A stretch of 64,000 nt of DNA, from assembly GCA_036835125.1 (NCBI GenBank), contig DAITMO010000001.1:57444-121443 (forward strand). Direction: 5' to 3'. This DNA comes from Patescibacteria group bacterium. Lineage in GTDB: Bacteria; Patescibacteriota; Microgenomatia; UBA8517. Both the position numbers and the translations under genes were made by a program. Of the stretch, positions 29,967 to 47,247 are shown in pieces. The notes below the pieces were generated by a model, which worked only from the letters and a program-made list of their open reading frames with translations, had not been told where the DNA came from and did not search any database. Position 1 is the stretch's first letter, and every line of letters begins with the position of its first letter.

Positions 29967-30368
29967 GGGGACGATCGGTCTCGACGGAGAGCTCTTTACA
30001 ATACTGCAAGCAGACTTTAATTCTAAGTCTTTGATTAGAATTAAAAAATATAAGAGAAAGCTAAAAACTTCTCTGCAGGACTTGCATCATTATTTGGTGT
30101 AAATTCTGTTCAACCTATGTACGCACAAGCGTTTGCATAAGTTGCATCCTGAGATTTGAATCTCGATTGAATCAAAAGGGTGTTAACCAATTCGGGATAT
30201 AACTATCAGTTTATGATTAAAAGCTGATAGCTGAAACTAAATTAATCTTACTTTTGATTGTCCGTAGATCGGCTTAAGTTAAAAGGAAATAAAAATTGGT
30301 CTAACAAGCTTGTAGAAGTATTATAGAAAGTATTTTCGGACGCGGGTTCGATTCCCGCCGTCTCCACC
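29967..30368 (+). ncRNA. ssrA: tmRNA (SsrA)
   Basis: 5' GGGGACG pairs with 3' CGUCUCC-A-CC, giving a G3:U70 alanine identity. The 3' T-arm is GCGGGUUCGAUUCCCGC. The internal tag reading frame runs 30054..30140 and ends YAQAFA-UAA. Confidence 0.8.
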
Positions 30369-32254
30369 TATTTTAGTTCAATTGATAGTAGTTTTTCTCC
30401 TGTTAAAAGGATTATTTTCTTTTCAGATTCTGAAACAACTATCTTTGTTGCATTTGCTATTTGGTCTCCCAAATATTGGGCTTTATATTTTCCATTTTTA
30501 TCAATAACCACAACTCTCTTTCCTGCTTTATCAAGAAGATATACGTTTTCATTATCTGGATCAGCATTTATTGCGTCCACATTTCCTATTTCAGGACTAA
30601 CTCCCGAAAGATAAAAATTCTGAGGAGACCCTAGACTGTATTTCAAAATCTTTGAATTTGGATACAAAACATATATTGATCCATTCATTCCCCACTCTAA
30701 AGCATTTGAAAAGTCTGCTTTTGTTGAGGAAGATAACCAGTTTTGTTGAGTTCCAAAATTACTTCCTGATTCACCTGCATATCTATAGATTTGGCCTCCT
30801 GATTTATCTAATACATATAGATTTCCAGCAAAAGAATGAATTAGTGCCTCACCTCCCCAAGTTTTCTCTATTACTTTTACCTTTGTTGAATCAACCTCAT
30901 AAATTCCGTCATTAAGAAGTAAAAACACTGTGTCTTCGTATGCCGCTAAATCTATTGGATTTTCTATTACAGTTGGACCTGTAACAACTTTGCTTTTTTT
31001 ATTGCTCATTTCTATTGTTACAACCCTTGATCCGTTTTTATCCAAAACATATATTAATCCACCCGAATAGGCTACAGCATCACCTTTAAAACCTGAGGAA
31101 AGAAGAGAAAGGTCCAAGAAAAGTTCTGGTGTAACTACATATTCCCCCAAAACCGCGGCCCTGCTGTCAGATATTTTTTGAGCAAGTTCGGTAACCTTAG
31201 GGTCTTTCACTTTTAAAGCCTCAATTTGGGCAAGTTTATTCTCACTATTTAAAAACAAACTTCTTGATTCTTCAGGGTTAATACTAGCAAGATTTATTGC
31301 TTGATCAATTTCATTTTGTGCTTCAATTAATAGTCCTTGATATTGGTGCTTTAGTTCATTCTTTTTCTTTTGTCCAATTCCAAAACCAACACTGACTACT
31401 AAAATAATTAAAAGAATTATTCCAACTGAAAGAGTCATTTTTCTTCCTTGAGAAACAGCTTCATCCTGCATTCCCTGCCTTATATAAATATTTCTTTTTG
31501 GAAGTTTTGAGCTTATTTTTCTTAATAAAGTTAGAGCTTTGTCTTTTATTTCTATTTTTGATGTCTGAGAATACCCATCTGGATTAGAAGGAATGGGAGA
31601 GTTTGTTGGAATCTCTTGGGGTGATGAAATTATACTTTCCTCTTTAAAAGAAATAATCATGGCTCCAGTGTTTGACTTTTCCTCACCTTCATATATTAGG
31701 GGTGTCAAGCTTTCAACCATTGCGTCCAAATTTGCTTCAATAGAACTTCTTTTCAAATCTTCACCCCCAACTTTTTCAAAAAATTCCTTTGTGCCCACAA
31801 CTATTACATCTCCATTTTTCGGAAAACCTGATGCTGTTATTACCTCATTTCCACTTTCTAGAATGGATGCAGTTGACCCTCCTCTAATAATCTGTGTTTT
31901 TACTCCTCCAAAGGCTGCTGAATAAACAACGTTTTCTGAATACACACAACACCCAATTTCCAAACCAGATTCATTAGTGTTAAATTCTTCAACAACCTTT
32001 TGAACTGCAGCTTTTAGTGCATCAAACGGCTTTTCTGAAGAACTGTTGTAATAGGCCTCACGAATTTGTACTGCAATTTCTCTTTCAAAAGTAATTGCTT
32101 CAACTCCTTCTTTACCATTTTTCATAGCTATTATTGCAAATAGCTGACCACGCAGTTTATGAGCATCGTTTTCTGAAGGACTAAAACCGTGAACCTGTAC
32201 CCAACCTGAAGCTCCGGGCGAAACAGTGACTTTTGCACTAGTTATTCTTAACAT
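30368..32254 (-). CDS. Membrane-anchored protein with a C-terminal NHL/beta-propeller-like repeat domain
   Basis: 628 aa with a central TM helix. The C-terminus carries repeated YVLDK..G..Y and VYLLDKAGKRVVVID units. Confidence 0.45.
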   Translation of the reverse strand: MLRITSAKVTVSPGASGWVQVHGFSPSENDAHKLRGQLFAIIAMKNGKEGVEAITFEREIAVQIREAYYNSSSEKPFDALKAAVQKVVEEFNTNESGLEIGCCVYSENVVYSAAFGGVKTQIIRGGSTASILESGNEVITASGFPKNGDVIVVGTKEFFEKVGGEDLKRSSIEANLDAMVESLTPLIYEGEEKSNTGAMIISFKEESIISSPQEIPTNSPIPSNPDGYSQTSKIEIKDKALTLLRKISSKLPKRNIYIRQGMQDEAVSQGRKMTLSVGIILLIILVVSVGFGIGQKKKNELKHQYQGLLIEAQNEIDQAINLASINPEESRSLFLNSENKLAQIEALKVKDPKVTELAQKISDSRAAVLGEYVVTPELFLDLSLLSSGFKGDAVAYSGGLIYVLDKNGSRVVTIEMSNKKSKVVTGPTVIENPIDLAAYEDTVFLLLNDGIYEVDSTKVKVIEKTWGGEALIHSFAGNLYVLDKSGGQIYRYAGESGSNFGTQQNWLSSSTKADFSNALEWGMNGSIYVLYPNSKILKYSLGSPQNFYLSGVSPEIGNVDAINADPDNENVYLLDKAGKRVVVIDKNGKYKAQYLGDQIANATKIVVSESEKKIILLTGEKLLSIELK

Positions 32255-33138: not shown

Positions 33139-34851
33139 CTATTTCTTCTCAATATTAAAAAATGCAAAACCTTTCTGAGGAATCATTAAATATCCTGGAG
33201 CACGAAGATTAAACGCTTGTTTAAATAAATCACCAGATATATGAATTGAGCCATTAATTATTACTTCATTTGTTGTCCCTGTTCCTTGAATTACCGACAC
33301 ACTTGTTACCGAATTTACCCCTCCCTTACTCCTTAATTCACCATAACTATATGGATTACCACCCCAACATGAAGTGGAAGTCGAAGTCACCCTATCATCA
33401 GATCCACTTTGTAAAACAATTGCGGCGTTAACTATGTCTGTAAATTCTTCATTGTTTAACCAAGGGTCCCCTTGTCCACATGTATCTCCACTTGATGAAT
33501 ATCCTTTTCTATACCAAGCTTTATATGCCCAAGGAGATCCTCCAATTTTTTCATAACTTTTGTCAAAGAAGTTTGTCCCACCTGATCCATCAGTTGTGTC
33601 CCAACCTGAAGTTGTTGAATACCCACCAGAAGTAGATGAATAATATGTCACTACATCCTCCAACACTTCTCCTTTAGTTTGATCAACTGCTTGTTTCCAT
33701 GCTGATGGTGGATTGTCAGATTTAGATTTGTTAAAAACTTGGCAACTTTCCGTTGTACATATCGTTTTTCCTTCAACCTTATATCTATAAGCGTATGTTC
33801 TAGCAGCTACAGCTTGTGCTTTCAAAGCTTCTGTGTTCCAACTTGAGGGCATTTCTGCAATTCCATAAAGATATGTTGTTTCAAAATCAATGGATCCATA
33901 TCCTGAAACACTAATACTTCCCCCTGTGTCTTTCCCAACAGGTTCTTTACCATAGTACGCTTTCAAGATTTGTTTGTAGTTTTGTCCGCTTTGTGCCCTA
34001 CCCCTTGCCCCGTACTGACTCATTCCTTTTCTATGGGTATATGCTCCGAATGAAAAAACAGCAAATGATCCTGAGGGGGCTGACTCTCTAAAACCTTTAA
34101 TGGAAGCATTATAATCGTCTGCCAGTTCACTATCTCCAACACTTGCTATAAAGCTTCCACTTTTGGCGTTCAATATTTCTTGTTGTTTAGAAGAAACCGC
34201 AGAAAGGTATGAATCAACTTTAGCAACCTCTCCTTCTAAAAACTTTGCATCTTCAGTTACTTTCTTTTGAAGAGAAGCAAGGGAAACTTTATTTTTTTCA
34301 AGATTTTCTTTGTCTGTTTTAAGTGATAGTAAATCTGCTGCATATTCTTCTAATGTTTTTCTATCAGAATCTGCTGCACGCTGTCTTAAACTAATTTCTT
34401 GGAAAGCTTGTGAAGCATTGTCTGAAAAAAGAAATGGAGTAATTGGATCATATAGTCTTAAGAAGGTATATTGGTCACGGGCTTTTTGATCAAAAAGGAT
34501 TTTTGTATATGCGAGGTCTTTTTCTCTTTCCTTCATTTCTATCTCTGTTACTTTTAATTGATTAGAAATTGAAGTTATTCTCTGATTCAAACTATTAATC
34601 TGACTTTTAAGGTTTGCTAGATTTGCTTTATTTTTTTCTTGTGCAGGAGCATAGGCGGCTGCAATTCTTGGAAGGATGGTATTTATACACTCATCCATTT
34701 CGTTTGTAGATAATTGACTTGGACTTTTATTTAAACAATCTGATTCTGTAACTGCAAAAATATCTGTTGTTTTAACAAAAGAAAAAATAAGTACAAATAA
34801 GGCTATCAAAAAACTAAGTATTATTTTCTTTTTTAGAGGAGGCATAACCAT
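33139..34851 (-). CDS. SpoIID/LytB-domain protein with an N-terminal signal anchor and long coiled coil
   Basis: 570 aa. The SpoIID signature MPSSWNTEALKAQAVAARTYAYRY follows about 250 aa of heptad-rich sequence. Confidence 0.65.
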   Translation of the reverse strand: MVMPPLKKKIILSFLIALFVLIFSFVKTTDIFAVTESDCLNKSPSQLSTNEMDECINTILPRIAAAYAPAQEKNKANLANLKSQINSLNQRITSISNQLKVTEIEMKEREKDLAYTKILFDQKARDQYTFLRLYDPITPFLFSDNASQAFQEISLRQRAADSDRKTLEEYAADLLSLKTDKENLEKNKVSLASLQKKVTEDAKFLEGEVAKVDSYLSAVSSKQQEILNAKSGSFIASVGDSELADDYNASIKGFRESAPSGSFAVFSFGAYTHRKGMSQYGARGRAQSGQNYKQILKAYYGKEPVGKDTGGSISVSGYGSIDFETTYLYGIAEMPSSWNTEALKAQAVAARTYAYRYKVEGKTICTTESCQVFNKSKSDNPPSAWKQAVDQTKGEVLEDVVTYYSSTSGGYSTTSGWDTTDGSGGTNFFDKSYEKIGGSPWAYKAWYRKGYSSSGDTCGQGDPWLNNEEFTDIVNAAIVLQSGSDDRVTSTSTSCWGGNPYSYGELRSKGGVNSVTSVSVIQGTGTTNEVIINGSIHISGDLFKQAFNLRAPGYLMIPQKGFAFFNIEKK

Positions 34852-34912: not shown

Positions 34913-35530
34913 GTGAAAAAGTTTTTGACTACATTGTCTACATTTTCTTTATTTATTGTATCTATTATATTTTTATTTTCTTTTTTTACAGAAAAGGCTT
35001 TGTCTCAATCACCCATTAAATGTGGTTACTTAGATGAACCTTGTTGTGATTTTGCTGGTTCAACTTTATCTTGTGATACTGGATTAGTTTGTTTAAATGG
35101 ATCTTGTGTATCAGATGGGACTATAGAGAACCCGCCAACGAGAACAGAAGTGTTGAATGAGTCTAATTATACACCTGGTGAAGGAATAGCCCCTTCAACA
35201 AATAATAAGAATCAAAATATATTATGTGATGGATCAACGGGAATAAGCACGGCGATTGGTTGTATTCATGCACTTGGAGATGAAAATGCTTTCTTAAATG
35301 ATTTGTTAAAGTGGGCTGTGGGTATTGGTAGTGGAATTGCGTTTGTACTTATGCTTGTGGCTGGTTTTATGATAATGACAGCACAAGGAAATCCAGAGAG
35401 ATTAAAGGCTGGACAAGAACTATTGACCTCTGCGATAGCAGGCTTAATACTTTTGATCTTTTCAGTGTTTATACTCAAATTTATTGGAATTGATATACTA
35501 GGTTTAGGAAAATTTGGTTTTGGAAAATAG
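34913..35530 (+). CDS. Secreted Cys-rich protein with a C-terminal VirB2/TrbC-like two-helix pilin module
   Basis: 205 aa. Signal peptide, then a PCC-containing Cys-rich domain, then the hydrophobic-GxxPERLK-hydrophobic module shared with the seven downstream paralogs. Confidence 0.5.
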   Translation: MKKFLTTLSTFSLFIVSIIFLFSFFTEKALSQSPIKCGYLDEPCCDFAGSTLSCDTGLVCLNGSCVSDGTIENPPTRTEVLNESNYTPGEGIAPSTNNKNQNILCDGSTGISTAIGCIHALGDENAFLNDLLKWAVGIGSGIAFVLMLVAGFMIMTAQGNPERLKAGQELLTSAIAGLILLIFSVFILKFIGIDILGLGKFGFGK

Positions 35531-35887
35531 ATGAATAAACTATTAACGCAAGTAAATTTTGATAAATTACAAGTACCTGCCGAGGGTGGATTAATTGGAA
35601 ATGCAAATAGTGGAAGTCTTAAATTTGGAGACATAATTGGACAAATATTTTCCACATATATATTCTATGCCGCAGGAATTGCTCTTTTAATATATTTAAT
35701 AATTGGTGGTTTTCAGTTTATGCTTTCAAGGGGAGATCCAAAGGCCACTCAAGCAGCACAGGCTAGAATTAGCAATGCCGTTATTGGTTTTATAATTATT
35801 TTTCTTGCCTTTATAATTGTTCAACTTGTGGGACAATTGTTTGGACTTAGTGGTACTATTTTTGGAGAAATTTTTAAACAACAATGA
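35531..35887 (+). CDS. VirB2/TrbC-like small two-helix membrane protein, paralog 1
   Basis: 118 aa with a variable N-terminus, then TM1-GGFxFMLSRGDPKATQAAQARI-TM2. Confidence 0.5.
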   Translation: MNKLLTQVNFDKLQVPAEGGLIGNANSGSLKFGDIIGQIFSTYIFYAAGIALLIYLIIGGFQFMLSRGDPKATQAAQARISNAVIGFIIIFLAFIIVQLVGQLFGLSGTIFGEIFKQQ

Positions 35888-36216
35888 AACACTTAACTGC
35901 AGCGTTTGATATAGGTTCAAAGTTTTTTGGAGAAAATTCAAATAATCCTTTGGCAAAAGGTGATGTTACTGGAGTTGGAAATGTTGTTTCTTTGTTTTTG
36001 AACATCGCATTTGTTCTTGCAGGGCTTATTCTTCTCTTTTTTTTCATTTTAGGAGGAATTGGTCTTATTGGTAGTGCAGGTAAAGAAGATCCTCAAAAAA
36101 ATGAACAATCAAAAAAAACAATTACTTCAGCAATAATTGGATTTGTTATTGTGTTTGCATCCTATTGGATAGTAAAATTAATAGGTCAACTCTTAGGAAT
36201 TGAGGGACTAATATAA
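35884..36216 (+). CDS. VirB2/TrbC-like small two-helix membrane protein, paralog 2
   Basis: 110 aa with the same TM1-GGIGLIGSAGKEDPQK-TM2 module. Overlaps the upstream gene by 4 nt. Confidence 0.5.
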   Translation: MKHLTAAFDIGSKFFGENSNNPLAKGDVTGVGNVVSLFLNIAFVLAGLILLFFFILGGIGLIGSAGKEDPQKNEQSKKTITSAIIGFVIVFASYWIVKLIGQLLGIEGLI

Positions 36217-36219
36217 AAT

Positions 36220-36573
36220 ATGAAACTTTTAGCAGCTGAAATAAATCCGTTTGGAACAATTGAAGCGCCTGAAGCTGTAGCTAAATATGCAGACACTCCC
36301 GCTAAAGGCATTGGAAATCTTATTCAAACAGTTGTTTGGGTTCTAATAATAGGAGCTGGACTTTATTCCCTCATTAATTTTGTTTTAGCAGGGTATGCAT
36401 TTCTTTCAGCAGGAGATGATCCAAAGAAAGTTGCAGGGGCTTGGGCAAAGATATGGCAAACAGCTCTTGGTTTAGCAGTTGCTGCAGGTGCCTTTGTTCT
36501 AGCAGCAATATTTGGAGCCTTAATTTTTGGAAAATGGGATTTTATTATTAACCCAACAATACCTACTTTATGA
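36220..36573 (+). CDS. VirB2/TrbC-like small two-helix membrane protein, paralog 3
   Basis: 117 aa with the module ...AGYAFLSAGDDPKKVAGAWAK... Confidence 0.5.
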   Translation: MKLLAAEINPFGTIEAPEAVAKYADTPAKGIGNLIQTVVWVLIIGAGLYSLINFVLAGYAFLSAGDDPKKVAGAWAKIWQTALGLAVAAGAFVLAAIFGALIFGKWDFIINPTIPTL

Positions 36574-36956
36574 AAAATAATTTAGCAGAAAATATTCAAA
36601 TAGCACCTGAGGGTGGTTTTAAAGGTTTTGGGAAATTGGGACTCGATGACTCTTTAGGAGCTTATGGTGCAGGAGTTACTTTTAATAAATTCATTTCAAC
36701 AACTATTGGGGTAATGACCATCGTTGCCTTTGTGTGGTTTTTGATTCAGATTTTTGTAGGAGCCATAGCGATTTCAACGGCAGGAGGGGATAAACAAAAG
36801 ATGCAAGAGGCTAAATCTAAGCTTTCATCATCAATTATCGGTCTTGTTGTAGTGGTAGCTGCAATTTTCTTAATAGAGATTGTTGGCAGTATTCTAGGCA
36901 TTGAAGACATTTTAAATCCGGCTATTCTCATACAAAATATAATAAATAAACAATAA
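36570..36956 (+). CDS. VirB2/TrbC-like small two-helix membrane protein, paralog 4
   Basis: 128 aa with the module ...GAIAISTAGGDKQKMQEAKSK... Confidence 0.5.
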   Translation: MKNNLAENIQIAPEGGFKGFGKLGLDDSLGAYGAGVTFNKFISTTIGVMTIVAFVWFLIQIFVGAIAISTAGGDKQKMQEAKSKLSSSIIGLVVVVAAIFLIEIVGSILGIEDILNPAILIQNIINKQ

Positions 36957-37318
36957 TGTTAAATTTTTTAGCACAAGGTGTACCAGAGCCAAAAGGTGGT
37001 ATTAGCAATCCAGCACTTGGCGATAAATACATGAACACCTCCGGAATAAATTTTTTCAAGTTGTTGATTCCTCGCTTGGTTACCGTAGTTTTAATCATAG
37101 GGTCTTTGATCTTTTTTTTCACTCTCATTACCGGAGCTATTCAATGGATGTCTTCAGGTGGAGACAAACAAGCTTTGGAAACAGCTAGAGGGAAAATTAC
37201 TCAGGCACTAATAGGTATAGTGATACTTTTCGTTTCATTTGCCATAGTAAAACTTATAGAACATTTTTTTGGGATATCAATATTGACTCTTGACATAGGA
37301 AGTCTCGTCATTCAATAA
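36956..37318 (+). CDS. VirB2/TrbC-like small two-helix membrane protein, paralog 5
   Basis: 120 aa with the module ...GAIQWMSSGGDKQALETARGK... Confidence 0.5.
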   Translation: MLNFLAQGVPEPKGGISNPALGDKYMNTSGINFFKLLIPRLVTVVLIIGSLIFFFTLITGAIQWMSSGGDKQALETARGKITQALIGIVILFVSFAIVKLIEHFFGISILTLDIGSLVIQ

Positions 37319-37333
37319 TACTAATTACATATT

Positions 37334-37669
37334 ATGAAATTACTTGCAGACACTGCAAATACGATTAATTTGCAACCAACTGATGACAAGTTTAAAGTGT
37401 TGGGAGATCTTACTTTTCCATCGATTATTTCAGCTGGAATTAGGCTTGTTGTTGTAATAGCTGCTATTGTTTTCTTTTTTATTTTAGTCATCGGAGGAAT
37501 CAGATGGATTGTATCAGGTGGTGATAAAGCTCAAACAGAAGCTGCAAGAAACCAAATAACTTCAGCTTTAGTTGGTCTTGTAATAGTATTTGCAGCTTGG
37601 GCAATTGTTGCTTTAATAAATGTATTCTTTAAGGTAGACATCTTCTCTCTTGCTATTCCATCAGTTTAA
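37334..37669 (+). CDS. VirB2/TrbC-like small two-helix membrane protein, paralog 6
   Basis: 111 aa with the module ...GGIRWIVSGGDKAQTEAARNQ... Confidence 0.5.
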   Translation: MKLLADTANTINLQPTDDKFKVLGDLTFPSIISAGIRLVVVIAAIVFFFILVIGGIRWIVSGGDKAQTEAARNQITSALVGLVIVFAAWAIVALINVFFKVDIFSLAIPSV

Positions 37670-37712
37670 GTTTCCTCTTTTCCTTTTTGTTTGCTTATCA
37701 TAAAATGTTGTT

Positions 37713-38021
37713 ATGCGAAGTTTTACTGTAAAAGCAAGCGATATTGATGGTGTTGCAAAAATATCCGACTTAGAATCTGTTATTGGCAATGTCATTGGTT
37801 ACGTTCTTGGTTTTGCTGGAATAGTTCTTTTTGTTCTATTAATACTTGGTGGTTTTAAATTTATAACTTCTGGAGGAGATCCAAAAGCTGTTGAAGGTGC
37901 AAAAAAAACTTTAACATCAGCCTTAGCGGGACTCGCAATTATTCTTCTGGCTTATTTAATACTGGTCTTAATCAAAAATCTTACGGGAGTAAACGTTACA
38001 AACTTCAGTATCCAACTTTAA
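37713..38021 (+). CDS. VirB2/TrbC-like small two-helix membrane protein, paralog 7
   Basis: 102 aa with the module ...GGFKFITSGGDPKAVEGAKKT... Confidence 0.5.
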   Translation: MRSFTVKASDIDGVAKISDLESVIGNVIGYVLGFAGIVLFVLLILGGFKFITSGGDPKAVEGAKKTLTSALAGLAIILLAYLILVLIKNLTGVNVTNFSIQL

Positions 38022-38063: not shown

Positions 38064-40805
38064 ATGAAAAGAATGTTTTCTAAGTTTTTGTTTCTTTTTG
38101 GTTTTTTTATTTATCTTTTTATATTTTCAACCAATAGTATGTATGCCCAAGAAGCACCATCTTGTGAATATACACGTAATTCTATTGGAAATCTTGTTGT
38201 GGCTGAAGGGCATGAATGTCCAGATGGGTATATTGAAACAAGTAATGGTATTTCAAATATGTACACTGTCCCTTCTTGTACGTGTGTAGCTGAAAACCCG
38301 GGAGAGACGTGTACAGGCGAAAACAAGACTCCAACAGTTACAAAACCATGCTGTGAGGGATTGAATGAATTTACTTATAATGGTGGAGTTAAATGTCTAA
38401 AAGAAAATTTAGATCCTTATAGCGCAGATTTATCTAACGATTCCGAATCAAATGAATCTAAACCAAATAAAGTCCCCACTTTGTTTTGTAGTAATGTTTC
38501 TAATAACGAGTTTCATTCTCTAAGACCTTATCCAGCAAATATTAGCTGCACTTCAAATATTACTGACTATGCAAGCTATTGTGGAGGTGATTTATCATTG
38601 ACAGATTCTATTGAAGTTGAATATCCAGGAACCGAGGCTTCATGTTCACGTATCGGAGATAAAGTTAATTGCAAATATAACATTCACATTTCTAAAAAAG
38701 TGACAATAGATTTATCAAACGCCGAACTTCCTATTATGGGAAATACTGAAGATGTGGTTAATAAAAAGAAGAATACTGATGATTTTGACGATGCTCAAAA
38801 AATGAATGAATATGTCAGTTGGTACTTAGGAGGTGTAACAAACAAAAAAGAATATCCAGACAAAAACGATTCTGTTTCTATTGTTAATTACTCTGGTCCA
38901 TTAGCAAAACTTATTCCTCAAGAAATTCAGTTTCTAGAAAGATACAACCAGGTGATAAAAGAGGCAGGAGTTACAAGACATGATCAGGTGGTTGTTTGCA
39001 CTAAAGGAATTGACGGCAATACCCCAACAGAATGTAATGGCCTAAACGAAATGAGATTAAGTGACTGGGATGGAGATTTATCAGCAATAAGAGGTGTGGG
39101 TAATGTTGTTGTTTCTTTGTTGAATGTTTTTGTAAAATCTATTCCTTGGATAGGTCAAGGTGTTGTAGCAAATGCTGTAAATGATAATAAAGCTTGGAAT
39201 CTTCGAACCCCTCCTCTCATGAGCGGCCTTGATCCAAACGGTGAACCCTTTAATAACCTTACTTATCAAAAGGCCTACAACGAATGGAGAGGAAAATCAT
39301 GTATTATGATTCCTTTTCCAAAATTTCTTGTTTGTTTAGAAAGTTACCTTGTGCCAAATAGATTTGCGGATCTTTATTCATATATTCCCCTATCCTCAAC
39401 CGAAGACATTAAAGGAGAAATTGTGGTCGACAACAAACCAAAATCAGTTGGGTCTAGTGCTGGTACAACAAAATTAACCAATGTTAGTTTCACAAATATT
39501 TTCGGTACAGGTAAAGCCTCGTCAACTCTTTTTTTTCCACACATGCAGGAATCTGATGATCTAGGATCCATTCTACAAAAAACCTATATACCAAAAGACG
39601 TTGAAGATTTGGGAAATCCGACAAACATATCTTCAGAAACCTCTTGTATTGATGTAGAGGTTCGATCAAATGCTGGAGATAATCTTTTTGCTAGTCAAAT
39701 AATTGGAACTTTAACATATGACGTTTCATTTGAACACAAGTTCGATTATTTATATTGTTCAGCCGGAAAAGATTCTGAATGCAAAAAAAACAAAGGACAA
39801 AAATGTCAAGAATCTAAAGATGGAGGTGTATGTGTATCAGATTCTGAACCGACAACACCTAAACAATACTACACAAAATCTGTCAATATAAAATTATCTA
39901 CCTCATCTAACACGCCGAAGGCAGATGATATTTGGTCACGCTTAGTTGCGGGCCCAATGTCTGTTTTTAAAAGAATTTTTCCAAAAACAAACACCGAAGG
40001 AAGTGTCGGAAAAATAATGGATATTGCAGGGTCAACGAGTATTACCTACTCTGGAACAAATGTAAGTGGATCTAGCGCCACAACAGATTTGAAAATTCCT
40101 CATATAGGAGGTGTGTATGAATACTTTCTGAAAGGCATTCAAACAGCTTTAAGACCAAAGGGTTATGGTGACAATATTATATTTGACAATAGTGCTTCAG
40201 ACATATTTGGTGATTCAAGCAGCATTTGTGATTCTAGCTGTAACCCAAACCCAACAAGTGTTGATATGGCTGGTGTAAAAGAAAGTTTTATAGCTGACGG
40301 AGTAAGGTGGGGATATGGAACAGAAGGAAGTCCAAGAATTGACATGTACGACACTGTAGTTTCAACTGCAAAAGCTGCTGGGGTGGACCCAATTTTTGTA
40401 CTTGCTTTATGGATTCATGAAAGTGGCGGAAGTAATTATTCTGCAATTTGTTCAGTTCAAGGGAAAAACAATCCAAACTCTGAATATTGTCAGTGGGTAC
40501 AAGATTTTGGAATCAACGATTCTTCAATAGCCACTAAAATAGATTCCAATGGAAATGTTGTTGAAGATCATTTTATGGATCAATTAAATGCAGTTGTCAA
40601 CTTACCAGGTTATTACTATGATTTATGCAACAACGATACAGCTGCTAAATGTCCCATTGAGTACTTTTATGCCATGTATAGGCTTGGTCAATGTAAACCA
40701 ACTAACGTTTCAAGTGGTGAATATGGAGGAAGTATGAAGAGGATTTATAACATTCTTACAGCTCAAAAATTCCCTTGCTACCCAATTAAAATACCAGACA
40801 ATTAA
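38064..40805 (+). CDS. Large secreted Cys-rich protein with a C-terminal lysozyme-like/lytic-transglycosylase-like region (candidate T4SS cell-wall hydrolase or adhesin)
   Basis: 913 aa. Signal peptide, then an N-terminal Cys-rich module (KPCCEG) related to the one in 34913..35530. The C-terminal DPIFVLALWIHESGGSNYSA resembles the SLT-domain ES...S motif. Confidence 0.45.
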   Translation: MKRMFSKFLFLFGFFIYLFIFSTNSMYAQEAPSCEYTRNSIGNLVVAEGHECPDGYIETSNGISNMYTVPSCTCVAENPGETCTGENKTPTVTKPCCEGLNEFTYNGGVKCLKENLDPYSADLSNDSESNESKPNKVPTLFCSNVSNNEFHSLRPYPANISCTSNITDYASYCGGDLSLTDSIEVEYPGTEASCSRIGDKVNCKYNIHISKKVTIDLSNAELPIMGNTEDVVNKKKNTDDFDDAQKMNEYVSWYLGGVTNKKEYPDKNDSVSIVNYSGPLAKLIPQEIQFLERYNQVIKEAGVTRHDQVVVCTKGIDGNTPTECNGLNEMRLSDWDGDLSAIRGVGNVVVSLLNVFVKSIPWIGQGVVANAVNDNKAWNLRTPPLMSGLDPNGEPFNNLTYQKAYNEWRGKSCIMIPFPKFLVCLESYLVPNRFADLYSYIPLSSTEDIKGEIVVDNKPKSVGSSAGTTKLTNVSFTNIFGTGKASSTLFFPHMQESDDLGSILQKTYIPKDVEDLGNPTNISSETSCIDVEVRSNAGDNLFASQIIGTLTYDVSFEHKFDYLYCSAGKDSECKKNKGQKCQESKDGGVCVSDSEPTTPKQYYTKSVNIKLSTSSNTPKADDIWSRLVAGPMSVFKRIFPKTNTEGSVGKIMDIAGSTSITYSGTNVSGSSATTDLKIPHIGGVYEYFLKGIQTALRPKGYGDNIIFDNSASDIFGDSSSICDSSCNPNPTSVDMAGVKESFIADGVRWGYGTEGSPRIDMYDTVVSTAKAAGVDPIFVLALWIHESGGSNYSAICSVQGKNNPNSEYCQWVQDFGINDSSIATKIDSNGNVVEDHFMDQLNAVVNLPGYYYDLCNNDTAAKCPIEYFYAMYRLGQCKPTNVSSGEYGGSMKRIYNILTAQKFPCYPIKIPDN

Positions 40806-40858: not shown

Positions 40859-42553
40859 ATGTTAAAAAAACTGCTCACATCATTTTTAGTAGGCTTGGTT
40901 TTATTGTTCTCTATTGCCCCCTTGACCTCTACAAAAGCCTCTAGTGTTTCCTGGTATAACCAAACGTTTCCTGAATGGTATTTAAAAGTTTATGACACAA
41001 CTAATTCTGATGAAATATTTGGAGAGCGATATACAGCAGCTCAGGTTCAATGGATTGTTTATTCAATACCTTCTTTAATAATTAATCTTGTTACAGGGGG
41101 CAACACTGATTTAGGAAGTTGTCTTGTGGGAGCAATGTCAAACAATATTGACATGCCCAAATGCAGTGAGGCTGTTTCTGACATAGCTGGTGGTTTAGGT
41201 ATAGTTTACGAAACAAAAGACCAACCCACAATTGCTTCTCAGATATTTGAAAGAAAAGATCTTTCGGGAATTGGTTATGTCAAAAATGTTTTTTCTAAGC
41301 TTAATCCAGTTACGACAGTAAGTGCACAAAGTGCATCCTCAGGTTTTGGTTTCTCTGCACTTGAAGCCATAGCTTTCATTTGGAAAATAACAAGAAATAT
41401 TGCCTATTTTCTATTTATTATCATTGCTGTTGTGTTTGCTTTTATGGTTATGTTTAGGGTTAAACTGTCTCCTCAGGTTGTTGTTACAGTCCAATCTGTT
41501 TTACCAAAATTGGTTATTGCGATTATCTTAGTCACTTTTTCTTTTGCTATAGCTGGTCTTCTAATTGATCTTATGTATGTTGTAATGGCTCTTTTGGCTA
41601 CATTTTTAGCAACGATGCTTCCTGATATTTTGGGTGGAAATGCAAGAATGATTTTTAATTTTATGAATGGGACAAATATACCTTTGGTTTCAGGTGGAAT
41701 AGCGCTCCTTGTATACTTTACCGGATATCTCCTTTTATATATTGTTGCATTAATTGCCATTGCCATTGCAGCTGTATCAGGATTTAATATTTCCTCTGCA
41801 GTATTTGCAGTATTGCTACTTATTTTTGCATTAGTATTAATCCTTGTGCTTACATGGTACATACTTAAGACAACTTTTGTTCTTTTCAAAAATCTAGCTA
41901 CAGTATATGGTCTTGTAATAATCGCTCCCCTTCAAATAAGTCTTGGTGCTATTTATCCTCAAGCTGGATTTGGATCGTGGTTGAAAAAATTTCTTGCAAA
42001 ACTTATGGTCTTTCCTTTAACCGGTGCCTTTATTTATTTAGCCATGGTTTTACTAATTTATTCAATCAGACTCTCAGGCGCAGGATTTGTAGGAAACAAC
42101 GTTTTGGCTAACTTGCTAAAGGGTATAGGGATGGTTGCAAGTGATAGTAATTTTGATATTTCTGTAGTTAACCCTGTTGGTAGTTGGGCACCCCCTCTTC
42201 TTGGAAACAATGCGTCGGCAGGTGGAATTGCATTTCTTCTCATGAGTGTTGGTTTAATCATGATGATTCCAAAGATATCAGAGTCCATAGATTCCTTCCT
42301 TGCAGGTAAAGGTATTGCTGGAACTGCTATTGGTGAAGCAATGGGGCCACTTGGAGTTATTCCTCAAGGTATGCAGAGAGGAGCTCAAGAGTGGGTGGGG
42401 CAAAACGCTGGTGCTTATGGGAAGAAATACGGTGCGATGGGTGCTGATAAACTACTCAGCCAAATACCTGAAGAGGTCAGACAAAAATCGAAGGTTTGGC
42501 AAAAGGTACAACAAACTATCGATGAGTGGTCTAAAATAAATCTAAAGAAATAA
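40859..42553 (+). CDS. VirB6/TrbL-like polytopic membrane protein
   Basis: 564 aa. Signal peptide, extracytoplasmic N-terminal region, then about 7-8 TM helices. Positioned in the locus like a VirB6. Confidence 0.45.
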   Translation: MLKKLLTSFLVGLVLLFSIAPLTSTKASSVSWYNQTFPEWYLKVYDTTNSDEIFGERYTAAQVQWIVYSIPSLIINLVTGGNTDLGSCLVGAMSNNIDMPKCSEAVSDIAGGLGIVYETKDQPTIASQIFERKDLSGIGYVKNVFSKLNPVTTVSAQSASSGFGFSALEAIAFIWKITRNIAYFLFIIIAVVFAFMVMFRVKLSPQVVVTVQSVLPKLVIAIILVTFSFAIAGLLIDLMYVVMALLATFLATMLPDILGGNARMIFNFMNGTNIPLVSGGIALLVYFTGYLLLYIVALIAIAIAAVSGFNISSAVFAVLLLIFALVLILVLTWYILKTTFVLFKNLATVYGLVIIAPLQISLGAIYPQAGFGSWLKKFLAKLMVFPLTGAFIYLAMVLLIYSIRLSGAGFVGNNVLANLLKGIGMVASDSNFDISVVNPVGSWAPPLLGNNASAGGIAFLLMSVGLIMMIPKISESIDSFLAGKGIAGTAIGEAMGPLGVIPQGMQRGAQEWVGQNAGAYGKKYGAMGADKLLSQIPEEVRQKSKVWQKVQQTIDEWSKINLKK

Positions 42554-42585
42554 TGGTTGCCCCCAACAAATCTTTCTCATGAAAT

Positions 42586-45144
42586 TTAAACAAAGTCATT
42601 GGTCAGTGCTGTTTTTGTTTGGGTTTTGTCCGTTGTGAAATCAGATCCATAATCCATACCTATCCTATATACAAGATTTGTATAAAACCAAAGCATCTTC
42701 ATAAAAGTTACATTGTAACCTTCAAATTTCCACGATATTGTGTTTCCATTCTTATCTTTGGCCTTGCATGGTTTTTCCCCGGGCAGATACTGACACATAA
42801 CCAACCATTCACTAACTTCGTCTTTGTAAGCTTGTTGTAGGCTTGTGTCCGTTGAAAATTTTCCACTATTAACATTCCACTTTTTATCGAGACTCAAGGA
42901 TATCAACATAGGCAGCACCATAACCTCCAAAACGGGCTCAGGGATTTCCTCAAAAATTACTTCATTACCATCTTTTGTTTTTAATATTTTTTTCTCCTTC
43001 AGAGAAATTTTTAGACCCCTGTTTCCCAATTCATCTCTTTGAATTAAATCTTTAATACCACTCAGACCGCCATAAAATGTTTGATAATCTCTATCATGTT
43101 CTGTATCTTTTAGATCTACTATTTCTTTTAGCCATCTTGACATCATCTGATTATTAACAAGCCACCAATCATAACCATGATCTTTAAAGGAGAGCCAAGG
43201 AATGTCAGATTTGTCTATACCATCACACAACGCCTCCCAAACACTTTTGTCAATTCCATTTTCTTTGAATTTAAAACTGGTAAGCATGTTTACAGAATCT
43301 ATTTTTGGGGGAAGAAAAACTGGCCAATTCACTAAATATCTTTCACTTGCTGTTGGTTTGTTGTAAGCATCACGGTGGCTTGCGTACGGAGTTTCCCAAT
43401 ACCACAAATTATCCTTTAAGATTTCGACAACCGTAGGATTGATTTTAAAACCATATTTCTTTACACGATCCTTTAATATACCCTCAACTTTTTGTTCCCA
43501 CACATGATCTTCACCAAAAAGCTTGTTTAGTCTGTCCTTTAAAACTGGATCTTTGTCGACACTTTCTGGTATGTCTGGTTTTTGATCTGGTCTTTTGTTC
43601 TCAATATAACTTTCACGAAAACCTGAAACTGACGCTGGCCAAATAGCAGCACGTCGATTCGCTTTGATATCGTAAAGAGCCTTGTGCATGAGCCAGAATT
43701 TTGGTGTGTAAAGATCTGTAGCCTGATTAATAGAACCCGTAACAGCTTTTCTGTGTAAAACCCCTTTTTCATCTTTGTACCACTCAAAATTCCATCCCAT
43801 ATCACTACACGCACCAACTCCAATACCCTCAACAAAACCTTTCTTAACTACAAACTCCATTAGTTTGTATTTAAATTCTCTATCTGTATGCCCCAATTTA
43901 CTCATAACCTTATATGCCTTCCCCTCTTTGTCGTAAACAACAGTTCCCTTCATTATCTCGTTTCTTTTTCTAATAACATCATCTGCTAATTGTAGAATTA
44001 CTCCAACAGTTTCTTTCTTGCCAGCTTCCATATTAACTTTATCAATTTGTGCCAAAGCATCTGTGTCAATCAACGCCATCAATGTTGCAACATAGTTATC
44101 CTTTTCAATTGGAGACTCTACTGTTGTGTACCACTGAAGAAGTTCTTTTGGAAATCTTCTCTTAACGTCGTCCAAATTAACCGTTCTGATTAAATCTTCG
44201 TTTGAAAATCTTCTCTCCTTAACCTGGCAATCGTCAACTGGAACCAAAAATTTATCTTCTTTGAATTTCCTGTCCTTACCCAACAAACTTCCCATTGTCC
44301 CATCAGACTCCATTTGAATCGACTTGTTCATAACAACTGACAAAAGCAACATTTTTCCTGGAGTTAATTTTCTCACATCTTTTTTAGAAACCTCTGTTCC
44401 ACCAGCCACACACTCTGAGATATTACAAAAACTCATGAAAGAAACTTTTTCATCTATAATTCCAAAATTTTCTTTACTTGGATCATATTGTGTGAGAGCG
44501 GTCATTGACATTTGAAGTTTGTCAAATCTATTTTGGAAGTTGACAGCAGTCTCTCTTATATCTTTTGTCTCTCGCGCTTCCTGAGCAGTAATTGGTACGG
44601 TTGTTTCTCTTGAGAAGGTTCCAGCAAAATTATACATTGTAGGAATCCTTCTTGGTTTATCATACAATTCAGCCTGCATTCTGTCGGTGCCACCAAAATT
44701 ATATGGCATCCCAGCTGAGAAGCCTTCTAACAGAGAAAGGGAATTATTCATCCAATTTACACCATCCTCGAGACTTCTTATCCAAACCTTTCTTTCTGGA
44801 TTTATAGTTTCATCACGATACAATTTGCTTACAAAATCCTGCAGACTCTCGACTCTCCCTCGCGGATCTCTGGATTCATATGGGTATACCGATTCAAAAC
44901 CTAATAGTTTATCTAAAACTCTTAAATTGGCTTCGACGACTGGCGTTTCAAGTTCAACTATTTGTTTTTCTATATTTACAGCATCCTCAGGAGAAGTTTG
45001 GCCCTCTTTTTGCAAAACCGCTTTAAATAATCTAACGTCACTTAGAGGTAATCTTCCACGACCATCTCCCCTTTTGTAAGTCTCAGGGGTATTATCCTTT
45101 GGTGGTTCTGGTGGTTTAAAAACATCCTCTTCTTTCTCTGCCAT
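42586..45144 (-). CDS. Large hypothetical soluble protein with no recognisable domain
   Basis: 852-aa ORF with no TM segment or signal peptide and no motif I can assign. Transcribed opposite to the surrounding T4SS-like genes. Confidence 0.5.
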   Translation of the reverse strand: MAEKEEDVFKPPEPPKDNTPETYKRGDGRGRLPLSDVRLFKAVLQKEGQTSPEDAVNIEKQIVELETPVVEANLRVLDKLLGFESVYPYESRDPRGRVESLQDFVSKLYRDETINPERKVWIRSLEDGVNWMNNSLSLLEGFSAGMPYNFGGTDRMQAELYDKPRRIPTMYNFAGTFSRETTVPITAQEARETKDIRETAVNFQNRFDKLQMSMTALTQYDPSKENFGIIDEKVSFMSFCNISECVAGGTEVSKKDVRKLTPGKMLLLSVVMNKSIQMESDGTMGSLLGKDRKFKEDKFLVPVDDCQVKERRFSNEDLIRTVNLDDVKRRFPKELLQWYTTVESPIEKDNYVATLMALIDTDALAQIDKVNMEAGKKETVGVILQLADDVIRKRNEIMKGTVVYDKEGKAYKVMSKLGHTDREFKYKLMEFVVKKGFVEGIGVGACSDMGWNFEWYKDEKGVLHRKAVTGSINQATDLYTPKFWLMHKALYDIKANRRAAIWPASVSGFRESYIENKRPDQKPDIPESVDKDPVLKDRLNKLFGEDHVWEQKVEGILKDRVKKYGFKINPTVVEILKDNLWYWETPYASHRDAYNKPTASERYLVNWPVFLPPKIDSVNMLTSFKFKENGIDKSVWEALCDGIDKSDIPWLSFKDHGYDWWLVNNQMMSRWLKEIVDLKDTEHDRDYQTFYGGLSGIKDLIQRDELGNRGLKISLKEKKILKTKDGNEVIFEEIPEPVLEVMVLPMLISLSLDKKWNVNSGKFSTDTSLQQAYKDEVSEWLVMCQYLPGEKPCKAKDKNGNTISWKFEGYNVTFMKMLWFYTNLVYRIGMDYGSDFTTDKTQTKTALTNDFV

Positions 45145-45218
45145 AAATGAATTATATAACAGGGTTAGAATAAATTAAAATATAGCTGCAACTTGCAAGC
45201 CCGTGTTATTATGTTTTT

Positions 45219-46577
45219 GTGAAAAATGAAGTTCGAATAACTTTGCCCCACGACATTGCGGTACGGATTTATCCCTTTTCAAAACTTCCAATCTCAAGAA
45301 ACTTTGAAAAAATATATAAAGATTTATATTCAAAACATATTCTTGGTGAACTTAAAGAGGCCCCTTCAATGCCTGACATACCACAATATTTTACATATGC
45401 ATGTGCAAGATCATCAGGGAACAGAGAAGTAAATACCTCTTACGGATTTGGTGGGAGTGACGATGAAAAAACTTCAATAGAACACTCCATAGCCGAAGCC
45501 ATCGAACACTATTGTATTCTAAATGAGACATCAAAAAAATTTGTACAAGGATCTTACAACCAATTAAAAATGAAGGCGGTTGACCCCACTCTATTTATCC
45601 CTTTTTCTAAAAAGCAATTCTCCAAAAAAAAATATAAAAAGTTTCGTGTCTCTAAAGATTCATTCATAAACTGGCTGGGGGGGTATGATCTTACAAATTC
45701 TAAGAAAATGTTAATTCCCGCTTCATTGGCGTATGCAAACTATTCTCACAAATTACACAACGAACCCGTAATTCGTATGCCAATAAGCACTGGTGCTGCT
45801 TGTGGTCCAAATTTAGACTTTGCAATTTACAAAGGTATTTGTGAGATTATCGAGAGGGATGGATATATCATTTCTTTTATGCCTGAGGTTCCAAAACGAC
45901 TAATTTCGATCGATAAATCAAATAAAGAATTATGTAAATTATTAAACAAATTTAACAGATATAACTTCGAGGTTTATTTTTTTGACACCACACTGGATAC
46001 TGATATTTTTTCGGTTGTTTGTCTGCTCGTAGACAGAACAGGGGGTGGCCCCGCAGTGTGTTGTGGTCTAGGGGCAGGTTTAGATACAACCAACGCCTTA
46101 AAAACTTCGGCTATTGAAGCTCTCAGAAGATATGTTTCTAATAGGAATAAATATTTTTATTCCAACAGTCCTATACCTAAGAATGGTTCTTTCGAGTGGT
46201 TTAATTGGAAAAAATACCGTGAGTGGTCGTCTCCACACATGATTAAACAGGTTGAGAATATAATTAGAAATTCAAAGGAAATTCCCCTACACAAAACAGT
46301 AAAATTAAAAACAGATAAAGAATATTTAAAATATACGCTTTCTAGACTTAGAAAAGTGAAGTGTACAACTTATTATATTGATATGACAATTCCCGAGGTA
46401 GAAACGCAGGGTTTAAAAATCGTTAAGGTATTAATCCCCGAAATGGTTCCTTTGTGGCATGACGAAAGATATCCATATTTTGGTATTAAGAGACTAATTG
46501 AGATTCCAAAAAGAATGAATATACATGTCAATCTAAACATAAACACGAAAGAGTTGATAAAAATTCATCCTTTTTAA
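45219..46577 (+). CDS. YcaO-domain protein (ATP-dependent cyclodehydratase/amide-activating family), standalone
   Basis: 452 aa. YcaO signatures SYGFGGSDDEKTSIEHSIAEAIEHY and ISTGAACGPNLDFAIYKGICEIIERDG. No fused E1-like domain. Confidence 0.8.
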   Translation: MKNEVRITLPHDIAVRIYPFSKLPISRNFEKIYKDLYSKHILGELKEAPSMPDIPQYFTYACARSSGNREVNTSYGFGGSDDEKTSIEHSIAEAIEHYCILNETSKKFVQGSYNQLKMKAVDPTLFIPFSKKQFSKKKYKKFRVSKDSFINWLGGYDLTNSKKMLIPASLAYANYSHKLHNEPVIRMPISTGAACGPNLDFAIYKGICEIIERDGYIISFMPEVPKRLISIDKSNKELCKLLNKFNRYNFEVYFFDTTLDTDIFSVVCLLVDRTGGGPAVCCGLGAGLDTTNALKTSAIEALRRYVSNRNKYFYSNSPIPKNGSFEWFNWKKYREWSSPHMIKQVENIIRNSKEIPLHKTVKLKTDKEYLKYTLSRLRKVKCTTYYIDMTIPEVETQGLKIVKVLIPEMVPLWHDERYPYFGIKRLIEIPKRMNIHVNLNINTKELIKIHPF

Positions 46578-46580
46578 AAT

Positions 46581-47213
46581 ATGCATAAAAATTATCCAAG
46601 ATTAGATAAATTGGCCCTTCCAGATGTAGAAAGTATTGGCGAACTAAGAGAAAGTATTAAAACAAGGAAATCTTTTAGAGATTTTGCAAAAAAAGGAATT
46701 GATAAAAAGACACTTTCTGATATATTATATCACAGCTTGGCGGCTACTAGATGTAACCCCAATGAAGAGTTCAATCCTTTTCGGGTATATCCTTCTGCTG
46801 GAGCTAAATATCCGATTGAGGCTTATGTGCTTATTATAAAAGGGAGGGGCATCAAAAAGGGTCTTTATCATTATAACCCAATTAACCACGAGTTGGAGGT
46901 TTTATTAAAAACAATCAAAACGGAAGATATAGATAATATTTGGATGCCAAAACAGCGGTGGTTTAAAAACGCATCTGTTCTAATAATACTAACTTCCATT
47001 TTTCACAGAACAACAGATAAATATAAAAAAAGAGGGGTTCTTTTTCCTTATATTGAAGCGGGGCATATTGTCCAAAATATATATTTATTATCAGCATCTT
47101 TCAAGATCGGGTGCTGCGCTATAGGTATGCTAAACGAAAAGTCTTTAATAAAGCTCCTTGATATAAACTCTAGGGATGAATACCCGATTTATTATGTAGT
47201 CATAGGATCTTGA
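46581..47213 (+). CDS. SagB-type dehydrogenase (nitroreductase-superfamily, FMN-dependent azoline oxidase type)
   Basis: 210 aa. R-S-R-F near the N-terminus and PSAGAKYPIEAYV...GLYHYNP motifs typical of the SagB/McbC family. Starts 3 nt after the YcaO stop. Confidence 0.75.
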   Translation: MHKNYPRLDKLALPDVESIGELRESIKTRKSFRDFAKKGIDKKTLSDILYHSLAATRCNPNEEFNPFRVYPSAGAKYPIEAYVLIIKGRGIKKGLYHYNPINHELEVLLKTIKTEDIDNIWMPKQRWFKNASVLIILTSIFHRTTDKYKKRGVLFPYIEAGHIVQNIYLLSASFKIGCCAIGMLNEKSLIKLLDINSRDEYPIYYVVIGS

Positions 47214-47247
47214 CATTGGGAAATACTGGGTATATAACACAAAGCAA

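Follow-up and report, generated by a model that had tools for sequence, protein, structure and literature searches.

An undescribed family of large, predicted cytoplasmic proteins occupies a fixed position in the type IV secretion cluster of Microgenomates-type Patescibacteria

We analyzed a 64,000-nucleotide stretch of a Patescibacteria group bacterium genome (assembly GCA_036835125.1, contig DAITMO010000001.1, positions 57,444 to 121,443; hereafter the window), centering on a gene of 852 codons that is embedded in a type IV secretion system (T4SS) cluster. We conclude with high confidence that this gene is a lineage-specific core gene of the Microgenomates-type (Patescibacteria) T4SS cluster: it kept the same position and orientation in 13/13 inspected loci, from lineages whose VirB4 proteins are mutually 55-89% identical. 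Its product is, judged by sequence comparison, a member of a previously undescribed, fast-evolving, cytoplasmic protein family, which we infer to be non-enzymatic and to work with the T4SS. What it does there we address more tentatively below, weighing a translocated substrate against a cytoplasmic adaptor and several less probable roles.

42586..45144, minus strand: the gene under study, ATG start, 852 aa, predicted cytoplasmic, member of a new family without a Pfam match

A sequence-only reading of the window had described a clean open reading frame here (ORF, 852 aa), free of transmembrane (TM) segments, signal peptide, P-loop and HExxH motif and without any assignable domain, and our hydropathy analysis, motif scans and database searches agree with this description throughout. 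The protein is 98 kDa and acidic (pI 5.9), with a hydrophilic N-terminus; its Kyte-Doolittle hydropathy over 19 residues reaches a maximum of 1.63 at residue 734, and every window stays below 1.8. The motif scan found no Walker A, HExxH, CxxC or HxH motif in it and none conserved across the family, and comparison against Pfam (even with E up to 5), PHROGs, NCBIfam, PADLOC and PDB sequences gave zero matches. It has no paralogue in the window or in the inspected loci, where it is present as a single copy per locus, and aligning the family profile to itself with hhalign revealed no internal repeats. An identical protein is encoded on a 778-kb contig, and the DNA of the locus is identical in five assemblies (four from the European Nucleotide Archive and one from Logan).

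The same reading had called the protein an orphan, which proved wrong: it has relatives in a family that counts at least 72 clusters (formed at 50% identity) and is hidden from word-seeded searches. Such searches, even with a 51-sequence profile, retrieved nothing beyond the protein and a single full-length orthologue of 59% identity (P0002), whereas an exhaustive HMMER search with these two as query, across 1.84 billion representatives of clusters formed at 50% identity, retrieved 72 clusters at E <= 1e-3, 50 of them at E <= 1e-10. The full-length orthologue, with its conserved start, and the 72 remote relatives together establish that this is a real coding gene. Family members are mostly 750-1050 aa long, and in the 51-sequence alignment homology spans the whole length, at 18-25% identity to the 852-aa protein. 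All are acidic, with neither signal peptide nor TM segment. None of the 51 aligned members matched Pfam and the family profile matched no PDB sequence; relatives were likewise not found in plasmids or phages (tblastn) or in IMG/VR (pattern scans). Source records label the members merely 'hypothetical protein [Patescibacteria group bacterium]', and the family is described nowhere in the literature that we searched.

To place the family in its genomic context, we examined 13 loci that represent at least 12 lineages: the window, L001, L006/L007, L008/L010, L009, L011, L012, L013/L014, L015, L016, L017 and L018 (a locus search with smaller alignments gave one genome locus and three metagenome loci). 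Among named relatives, the one nearest to the gene block as a whole is L010, from a 'Microgenomates group bacterium' metagenome-assembled genome. In the window, the surrounding features are as follows.

33139..34851, minus strand: SpoIID/LytB-like protein, conserved outer neighbour of the pilin array
34913..38021, plus strand: eight VirB2-like T4SS pilin paralogues (PF18895), mostly with one-to-one orthologues elsewhere
38064..40805, plus strand: 913-aa secreted protein with a signal peptide, conserved upstream of the VirB6-like gene
40859..42553, plus strand: VirB6-like membrane protein, 564 aa, signal/anchor and 6 TM segments, named by topology, no Pfam match
42554..42585, no strand: convergent spacer, 32 nt stop-to-stop between the 852-aa gene and the VirB6-like gene, no terminator-like hairpin
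45219..47817, plus strand: YcaO accessory insert, with YcaO (SagD-like), a nitroreductase-family protein and a 189-aa protein
47850..54967, plus strand: second T4SS half, with PrgI/VirB3-like (366 aa), TrsD/TraC-like (238 aa), VirB4 ATPase (650 aa), 944-aa membrane protein and Big_5 protein (158 aa)
54968..57658, minus strand: dnaN and dnaA, which put the cluster beside the replication origin

Wherever a contig was long enough, the order was the same: dnaA, dnaN, Big_5 and 944-like genes, then VirB4, TrsD and PrgI on one strand, a variable slot, the gene under study, the VirB6-like gene, the 913-like gene and eight pilins, and finally SpoIID. The VirB6-like, 913-like and pilin genes are co-directional with VirB4; the gene under study is always the sole opposite-strand gene between these two co-directional halves, with SpoIID on its strand. 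Its convergent neighbour is the VirB6-like gene in 13/13 loci, at a stop-to-stop spacing of -4 to 52 nt. The sequence-only reading had placed the gene between a VirB6-like gene and an opposite-strand YcaO gene and had tied it to a T4SS-like locus; both statements hold, with 'VirB6-like' resting on topology. That reading had also named homology to a housekeeping enzyme, or homologues outside T4SS loci, as what would count against it, and neither turned up, be it in the database searches or in the 13 loci. No inspected context was without T4SS genes, with 13 of the at least 72 family clusters covered and many contigs short.

The machine itself is already known. T4SS clusters are widespread in Patescibacteria and were found to be essential for epibiotic growth in the one species that is genetically tractable (PMC10633639, PMC12102498, PMC12857230), and the window carries the same array of VirB4, TrsD-like, PrgI/VirB3-like, VirB6-like and VirB2-like pilin genes as the MPF-FATA-like systems of Patescibacteria (Quinonero-Coronel et al. 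2025, PMC12102498), among them Southlakia epibionticum SEML1_0004-0019 (Wang et al. 2023, PMC10633639). It also shares with them a position beside dnaA/dnaN and the lack of a relaxase or coupling protein in the cluster (PMC12102498, PMC10633639, PMC12857230). In the published systems relaxases are uncommon, genes for coupling proteins seldom lie near virB4 and no effector is named (PMC10633639, PMC12102498, PMC12857230), with both relaxases and coupling proteins mostly absent near virB4 (PMC12102498). Published inventories, which report VirB6 as 'scarce' in Microgenomatia, rest on known hidden Markov model profiles and leave unmatched neighbours unnamed, and the family described here goes unmentioned in them (PMC12102498, PMC10633639).

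We next modelled the protein with AlphaFold. With the 51-sequence alignment the predicted local distance difference test (pLDDT) was 88.1 (five models, 84.8-88.1) and the predicted template modelling score 0.89; with two sequences only, the pLDDT was 32. The model comprises a disordered tail (residues 1-29), a long-helix N-terminal region (about 34-220), a low-confidence insertion (about 281-320), a mixed alpha/beta body with several elements of a helix plus beta-hairpin, and then a 42-residue C-terminal helix. A fold search with this confident model found no significant match to a solved structure, the weak matches being all-helical bundle or repeat proteins. As modelled, the architecture is confidently predicted and has no detectable relative in the libraries searched. 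Four parts of the protein recur in the argument.

45058..45144, minus strand: N-terminal tail, codons 1-29, hydrophilic, Pro/Glu/Lys/Gly-rich, predicted disordered (pLDDT about 45)
44185..44304, minus strand: lineage-specific insertion, codons about 281-320, low-confidence, 72-95% gaps in the family alignment
43018..43041, minus strand: best conserved family motif, codons 702-709, QRDELGNR (consensus KRxxLGxR), with R709 invariant in 51/51
42889..42945, minus strand: moderately hydrophobic helix, codons 734-752, with a 19-residue hydropathy of 1.63 here and up to 2.2 in relatives (pLDDT 92-97)

Conservation is spread over the whole chain. R709 and W780 are invariant, and R197, Q219, W451, G470, D532, P612, S646, K702/R703 and L706 are nearly so, most of these residues being Arg, Trp, Gly or Pro, and in most members the moderately hydrophobic helix is about equally far from the C-terminus. 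The family has no conserved His or Cys, P-loop or metal motif, and the 852-aa protein is without several acidic residues of the family consensus (D128G, D151G, D205N, D440G); on these grounds we propose that its function would be binding or scaffolding rather than catalysis. An identity as a VirD4-, VirB4- or VirB11-type ATPase finds no Walker A motif to build on: matches in 4/73 members are chance matches at non-homologous positions, with no P-loop Pfam match in 51 members. Nor did those 51 members give a HUH, Rep_trans, PD-(D/E)xK or primase signal, or any Pfam or PDB match, that would identify a relaxase.

These residues also bear on whether the protein might instead handle nucleic acid for a DNA-transporting T4SS, as a divergent relaxase or relaxosome protein or as a processor of imported DNA. 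Patescibacteria T4SS clusters are without recognisable relaxases and a published study allows for 'very different relaxases'; Arg and Lys are frequent among the conserved residues (R197, K702, R703, R709), and the repeated helix plus beta-hairpin elements of the model may be winged-helix-like. We nevertheless consider this role improbable, given that neither Tyr nor His is invariant anywhere in the family (HxH is found in 8/73 members, scattered in position) and that it has no invariant acidic cluster, with the four consensus acidic residues replaced in the 852-aa protein itself, that the enzyme signals just named are absent, and that no structural match to DNA-binding proteins rose above noise.

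The distribution of variability along the chain speaks to a different possibility, a polymorphic toxin whose C-terminal toxin domain varies and whose immunity gene lies alongside. Like polymorphic toxins and the bacteria-killing T4SS effectors of the XVIPCD type, the protein is large, associated with a secretion locus and variable between strains, its evolution is fast, and variable small genes lie upstream of it in some lineages. It differs from them in having no layout of conserved N-terminus and variable C-terminus, no toxin domain and no immunity gene. The sequence-only reading had proposed a check for toxin-like C-terminal variability, and this came out the other way: the last ~100 residues are among the conserved parts, and variation is concentrated in internal insertions, comprising the one at codons ~281-320 and smaller, similar ones at residues ~225-260, 381-400, 541-560 and 705-735, so that its layout does not match a polymorphic toxin. 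With no toxin domain in 51 members and no conserved immunity-like neighbour, the downstream neighbour always being the VirB6-like gene, we regard a toxin of this kind as very improbable.

Across the family, both termini have properties that may resemble signals. The N-terminal tail is conserved with the 59% orthologue, and the tails of other members carry short motifs, such as PEW[KR]s.[IL]PDIRM (at least 13/73), KFxIG, MPDGM[ST][ST]PE and xINY..GGG, which within the loci are exclusive to the family. Across the family, the C-terminal 30 residues are more basic than the remainder (mean charge +1.5 vs. -0.5; median percentile 0.79).

We then compared rates of divergence within the cluster. Between the window and L006/L007, identity is 89% for VirB4, 81-82% for TrsD, 70-73% for PrgI, 68% for YcaO and 50-53% for the VirB6-like and 913-aa proteins, and falls to 24% (BLAST) or 30% (local Smith-Waterman) for the 852-aa protein. 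Over 12 lineages we distinguish at least seven deep types of the protein, with 23-31% mutual identity, as compared with 31-55% for the adjacent VirB6-like genes. The pattern is also discordant with that of the machine. L011 has an outgroup machine (VirB4 55-58%, VirB6-like 31-39%), yet its family member is 40-45% identical to those of the L009/L010/L012/L014 clade (clade C); the window's machine is nearer to that clade (VirB4 71-79%), but the 852-aa protein is only 27-30% identical to its members. Between the window and L001 the two proteins are 61% identical, a divergence not above that of their neighbours. Either distant alleles replacing the gene in situ or bursts of accelerated evolution would fit this pattern, two processes that identities near the floor do not separate; with the closest orthologue at 59% identity, the ratio of nonsynonymous to synonymous substitution rates would be saturated.

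These rates argue against a more trivial account, in which a conserved cytoplasmic protein unrelated to secretion is trapped in an origin-proximal gene block. The whole block from dnaA-dnaN to SpoIID is syntenic, and a low rearrangement rate in tiny genomes could suffice to hold it together. However, the slot adjoining the gene is highly rearranged while the gene itself never moves, and its divergence is unlike that of its housekeeping neighbours (in one comparison dnaA 63%, dnaN 53% and the 852-aa protein 22-23%), which leaves this account with a small probability.

Comparison of the regions upstream of the gene pointed to a promoter of its own. The relevant elements in the window are the following.

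45145..45218, no strand: divergent intergenic region, 74 bp, from the 852-aa gene to the YcaO start
45151..45156, minus strand: -10 box TATAAT, ending 6 nt before the ATG of the 852-aa gene, no Shine-Dalgarno sequence
45204-45212, plus strand: YcaO -10-like sequence TGtTATTAT, 6 nt before the YcaO GTG and about 50 bp from the other box

A -10-like hexamer (TATAAT, TAAAAT, TAGAAT or TACAAT, several of them TGn-extended) ends 5-12 nt before the start of the gene in 12/12 lineages, a count for which the start codons of L015 and L010 were re-assigned with the conserved N-terminal motif as guide; in the window, TA[TAG]AAT would fall in this start-proximal slot by chance in 1.6% of cases. The boxes emerged from lineage comparison only, as a sigma-70 and terminator scan of 42400..45400 gave nothing above shuffled sequence. 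We infer from this conservation that the gene has its own promoter and a leaderless, monocistronic mRNA. Start-proximal -10-like boxes (5-9 nt, no Shine-Dalgarno sequence) also precede the first pilin gene (34913), the 913-aa gene (38064) and SpoIID (34851), and leaderless starts thus look common in this genome. At the other end, the convergence with the VirB6-like gene without a terminator-like hairpin implies that the two transcripts must overlap, which makes antisense or transcriptional interference possible.

This arrangement would suit a T4SS regulator or assembly checkpoint, such as a cytoplasmic sensor controlling the divergent VirB4 operon. The gene is divergent from the PrgI-TrsD-VirB4 operon in most lineages, with its own promoter, and the convergent abutment on the pilin/VirB6 operon could be a source of transcriptional interference. 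The protein, however, has no helix-turn-helix, receiver, kinase or STAND module, a length of 850 aa combined with very fast evolution is atypical of regulators, and the intergenic region is broken by unrelated cargo in many lineages; we give a regulatory role little chance.

The cargo in question lies in the slot between the 5' end of the gene and the PrgI operon, the content of which varies by lineage while its surroundings are fixed.

Window 45145-47849 and L006: YcaO, nitroreductase and 189-aa gene
L001 754-2201: an unrelated 426-aa gene (not YcaO)
L008/L010 (L010 8313-9697): DUF4177 and a 228-aa gene
L015 3320-9704: about 6 kb of oxidoreductase, argininosuccinate-synthase-like and amidohydrolase genes
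L017 (1999-2912) and L018: a 250-aa, co-directional gene
L009, L011, L013: empty

The sequence-only reading had suggested co-regulation of the 852-aa gene with the YcaO operon through their shared intergenic region, and one may go further and see the protein as a member or substrate of a YcaO/azoline pathway of the thiazole/oxazole-modified microcin (TOMM) kind. The two genes are indeed adjacent and divergent in the window and L006. The YcaO module, however, is present in only 2/10 lineages with a visible upstream side (absent in L001, L009, L010, L011, L012, L013, L015 and L017), the divergent neighbour elsewhere being the PrgI-TrsD-VirB4 operon or unrelated cargo, and the two genes have separate -10 boxes ~50 bp apart. 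Co-regulation is therefore not upheld, and the wider YcaO explanation, largely refuted by this distribution, is left with a very slight probability. The variable content of the slot identifies the module as an accessory insertion rather than a partner of the 852-aa gene.

The module is itself of some interest. The YcaO gene (45219..46577) matches PF02624 at E=3e-48 and scores 215 bits against the SagD-type model TIGR03604, whose cut-off is 219 bits. Together with the nitroreductase (SagB-like?) and 189-aa genes it heads the PrgI-TrsD-VirB4 operon in two lineages (the window; L006 3456-6636); YcaO and nitroreductase were found only in the window lineage and L006/L007, and in L015 a weak homologue of the 189-aa gene lies ahead of PrgI as well. 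The module has no evident gene for a precursor peptide. A TOMM-type modification system inside a T4SS cluster would be unusual, and it is pure speculation that the leader-bearing VirB2-like pilins might be its substrates.

Returning to the function of the 852-aa protein, two readings stand above the others, and we rank a dedicated translocated substrate first and a cytoplasmic adaptor or platform second. A translocated effector was among the roles that the sequence-only reading had raised, beside a toxin or a cognate regulator. On the substrate reading, for which our support is tentative and short of an even chance, the protein would be a large scaffold-type effector candidate analogous to CagA. 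It would be made in the cytoplasm, be recruited at the cytoplasmic face of the machine through its disordered N-terminal tail and/or, in most relatives, a basic C-terminal tail, and then be delivered through the VirB4/VirB6-like/pilus apparatus into or onto a host cell, where its action would consist in binding and not in catalysis. Its divergence, faster than that of the machine and discordant with it, would then be accounted for by contact with host targets.

CagA of Helicobacter pylori is a cytoplasmic protein of ~100-130 kDa, without signal peptide or enzyme motif and with a fold that is not known to have relatives; its gene has a fixed place in the cag T4SS island, is under a separate promoter and evolves faster than any other gene there. 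The likeness to the protein studied here, in large size, cytoplasmic character, lack of signal peptide and enzyme motif, fixed T4SS place and separate promoter, is one of analogy, not homology, as the two have no sequence or structural similarity. Translocation is only proposed in the present case, and the target cell would be a prokaryote. Neither a CagF-like chaperone nor a Cag-beta-like coupling ATPase was identified here.

We rank the substrate reading first for four reasons: the gene is transcribed separately and in the opposite direction in every lineage, the protein diverges faster than the cytoplasmic machine parts and discordantly with them, it appears restricted to certain lineages, and its terminal tails have properties that may be signal-like. 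Concerning the third, the essential Saccharibacteria cluster SEML1_0004-0019, compared by description and not by sequence, has no evident counterpart by size, strand or annotation (PMC10633639), which suggests that the protein is probably not a universal part of the machine.

Several observations weigh against this ranking. Full-length conservation and universal single copy suit a machine part equally well. The C-terminal tail of the 852-aa protein itself carries a net charge of -1 and forms a helix in the model, so that the basic-tail feature fails in this very member. A coupling protein (VirD4/TcpA) is absent among the ORFs of the locus and the larger ORFs of the window that were scanned. 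The discordance has L011 and the trio of window, L001 and L007 as its main support, as values of 24-30% identity lie close to the floor. Fast evolution, moreover, is not unique to the 852-aa protein, since the 944-aa membrane protein, alone in the cluster, is even less conserved.

Some of these facts lend weight to the adaptor reading, somewhat unlikely in our estimate, in which the protein would be a structural platform in the cytoplasm. It would bind to VirB4/TrsD and/or to cytoplasmic loops of the VirB6-like protein and bring substrates to the machine, as a non-ATPase stand-in for a coupling complex. This reading draws on universal presence, conservation over the full length, the tight link to a VirB6-like gene that is short, and a locus without a coupling protein. 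The Legionella proteins DotM, DotN, IcmS-IcmW and LvgA, and the hydrophilic domains of extended VirB6 proteins, are likewise soluble, non-ATPase components at the base of a T4SS, and the weak structural matches of the 852-aa protein are all-helical bundle or repeat proteins too. Those adaptors differ in being small and in binding a VirD4-family ATPase that is absent from this locus; no homology connects them to the family, and the 852-aa gene is always separately transcribed. Against an adaptor also stand its transcription apart from and against both structural operons in every lineage, its evolution at two to three times the rate of VirB4/TrsD and discordantly with them, and the lack of sequence relation to any known adaptor.

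Other genes of the cluster merit brief description. The SpoIID/LytB-domain protein (570 aa, with an N-terminal anchor) is also the outer neighbour in L001, L011, L012, L014 and L015, and is a candidate cell-wall-remodelling (VirB1-substitute) enzyme of the T4SS. The 913-aa secreted protein has no Pfam or PDB match; its conserved C-terminal region contains 'LWIHESGGSNY', which we take to resemble the Glu-Ser catalytic motif of lytic transglycosylases. Within the pilin array, pil111 keeps 66-83% identity across most lineages (47-56% with L011), and paralogues within the array are far more diverged; one-to-one orthologues combined with diverged paralogues suggest that the array is ancient, with each position maintained, and not a recent amplification. 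In the 944-aa protein (51623-54457, plus strand) a cytoplasmic N-terminal half is followed by TM segments clustered at 520-645 and then by a C-terminal domain; with L010 it shares 36% identity over 436 aa, in L012 it can barely be detected, and in L011 and L009 not at all. In L017, a 124-aa gene for a four-helix-bundle protein (23S_rRNA_IVP / bAvd-like; 560-934, minus strand) lies between the PrgI and TrsD homologues. A diversity-generating retroelement beside the L017 family member was considered and rejected, there being no template or variable repeats and the neighbouring 335-aa gene being PrgI-like, not a reverse transcriptase.

The window as a whole is ~35% G+C and holds dnaA, dnaN, YidC, DnaG, a sigma-70 factor, glycolytic genes, a transfer-messenger RNA (tmRNA) and tRNAs. 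Its segment 26058-30368 contains four tRNA-Ser genes (GGA, CGA, GCU, UGA) and a tRNA-Arg inside 2.6 kb; the tmRNA (402 nt, 29967-30368) carries the tag EKAKNFSAGLASLFGVNSVQPMYAQAFA, and a 628-aa ORF without a Pfam match (30368-32254, minus strand) abuts its gene.

What is new here, set against a T4SS that was already known in Patescibacteria, is a structurally novel, unrecognised core gene of the cluster. It adds a family to the T4SS parts list to which profile-based inventories are blind, and provides a concrete candidate for either cargo or a substrate receptor. The reach of the finding is limited, as there are no cultivated Microgenomates. At its widest, and with a good deal of doubt, the family may be cargo of a Patescibacteria T4SS, a novel non-enzymatic 'core effector' injected into prokaryotic hosts; if that is true, lineages would have exchanged its deep types at one constant place in the locus, and these types would determine host range or follow it.

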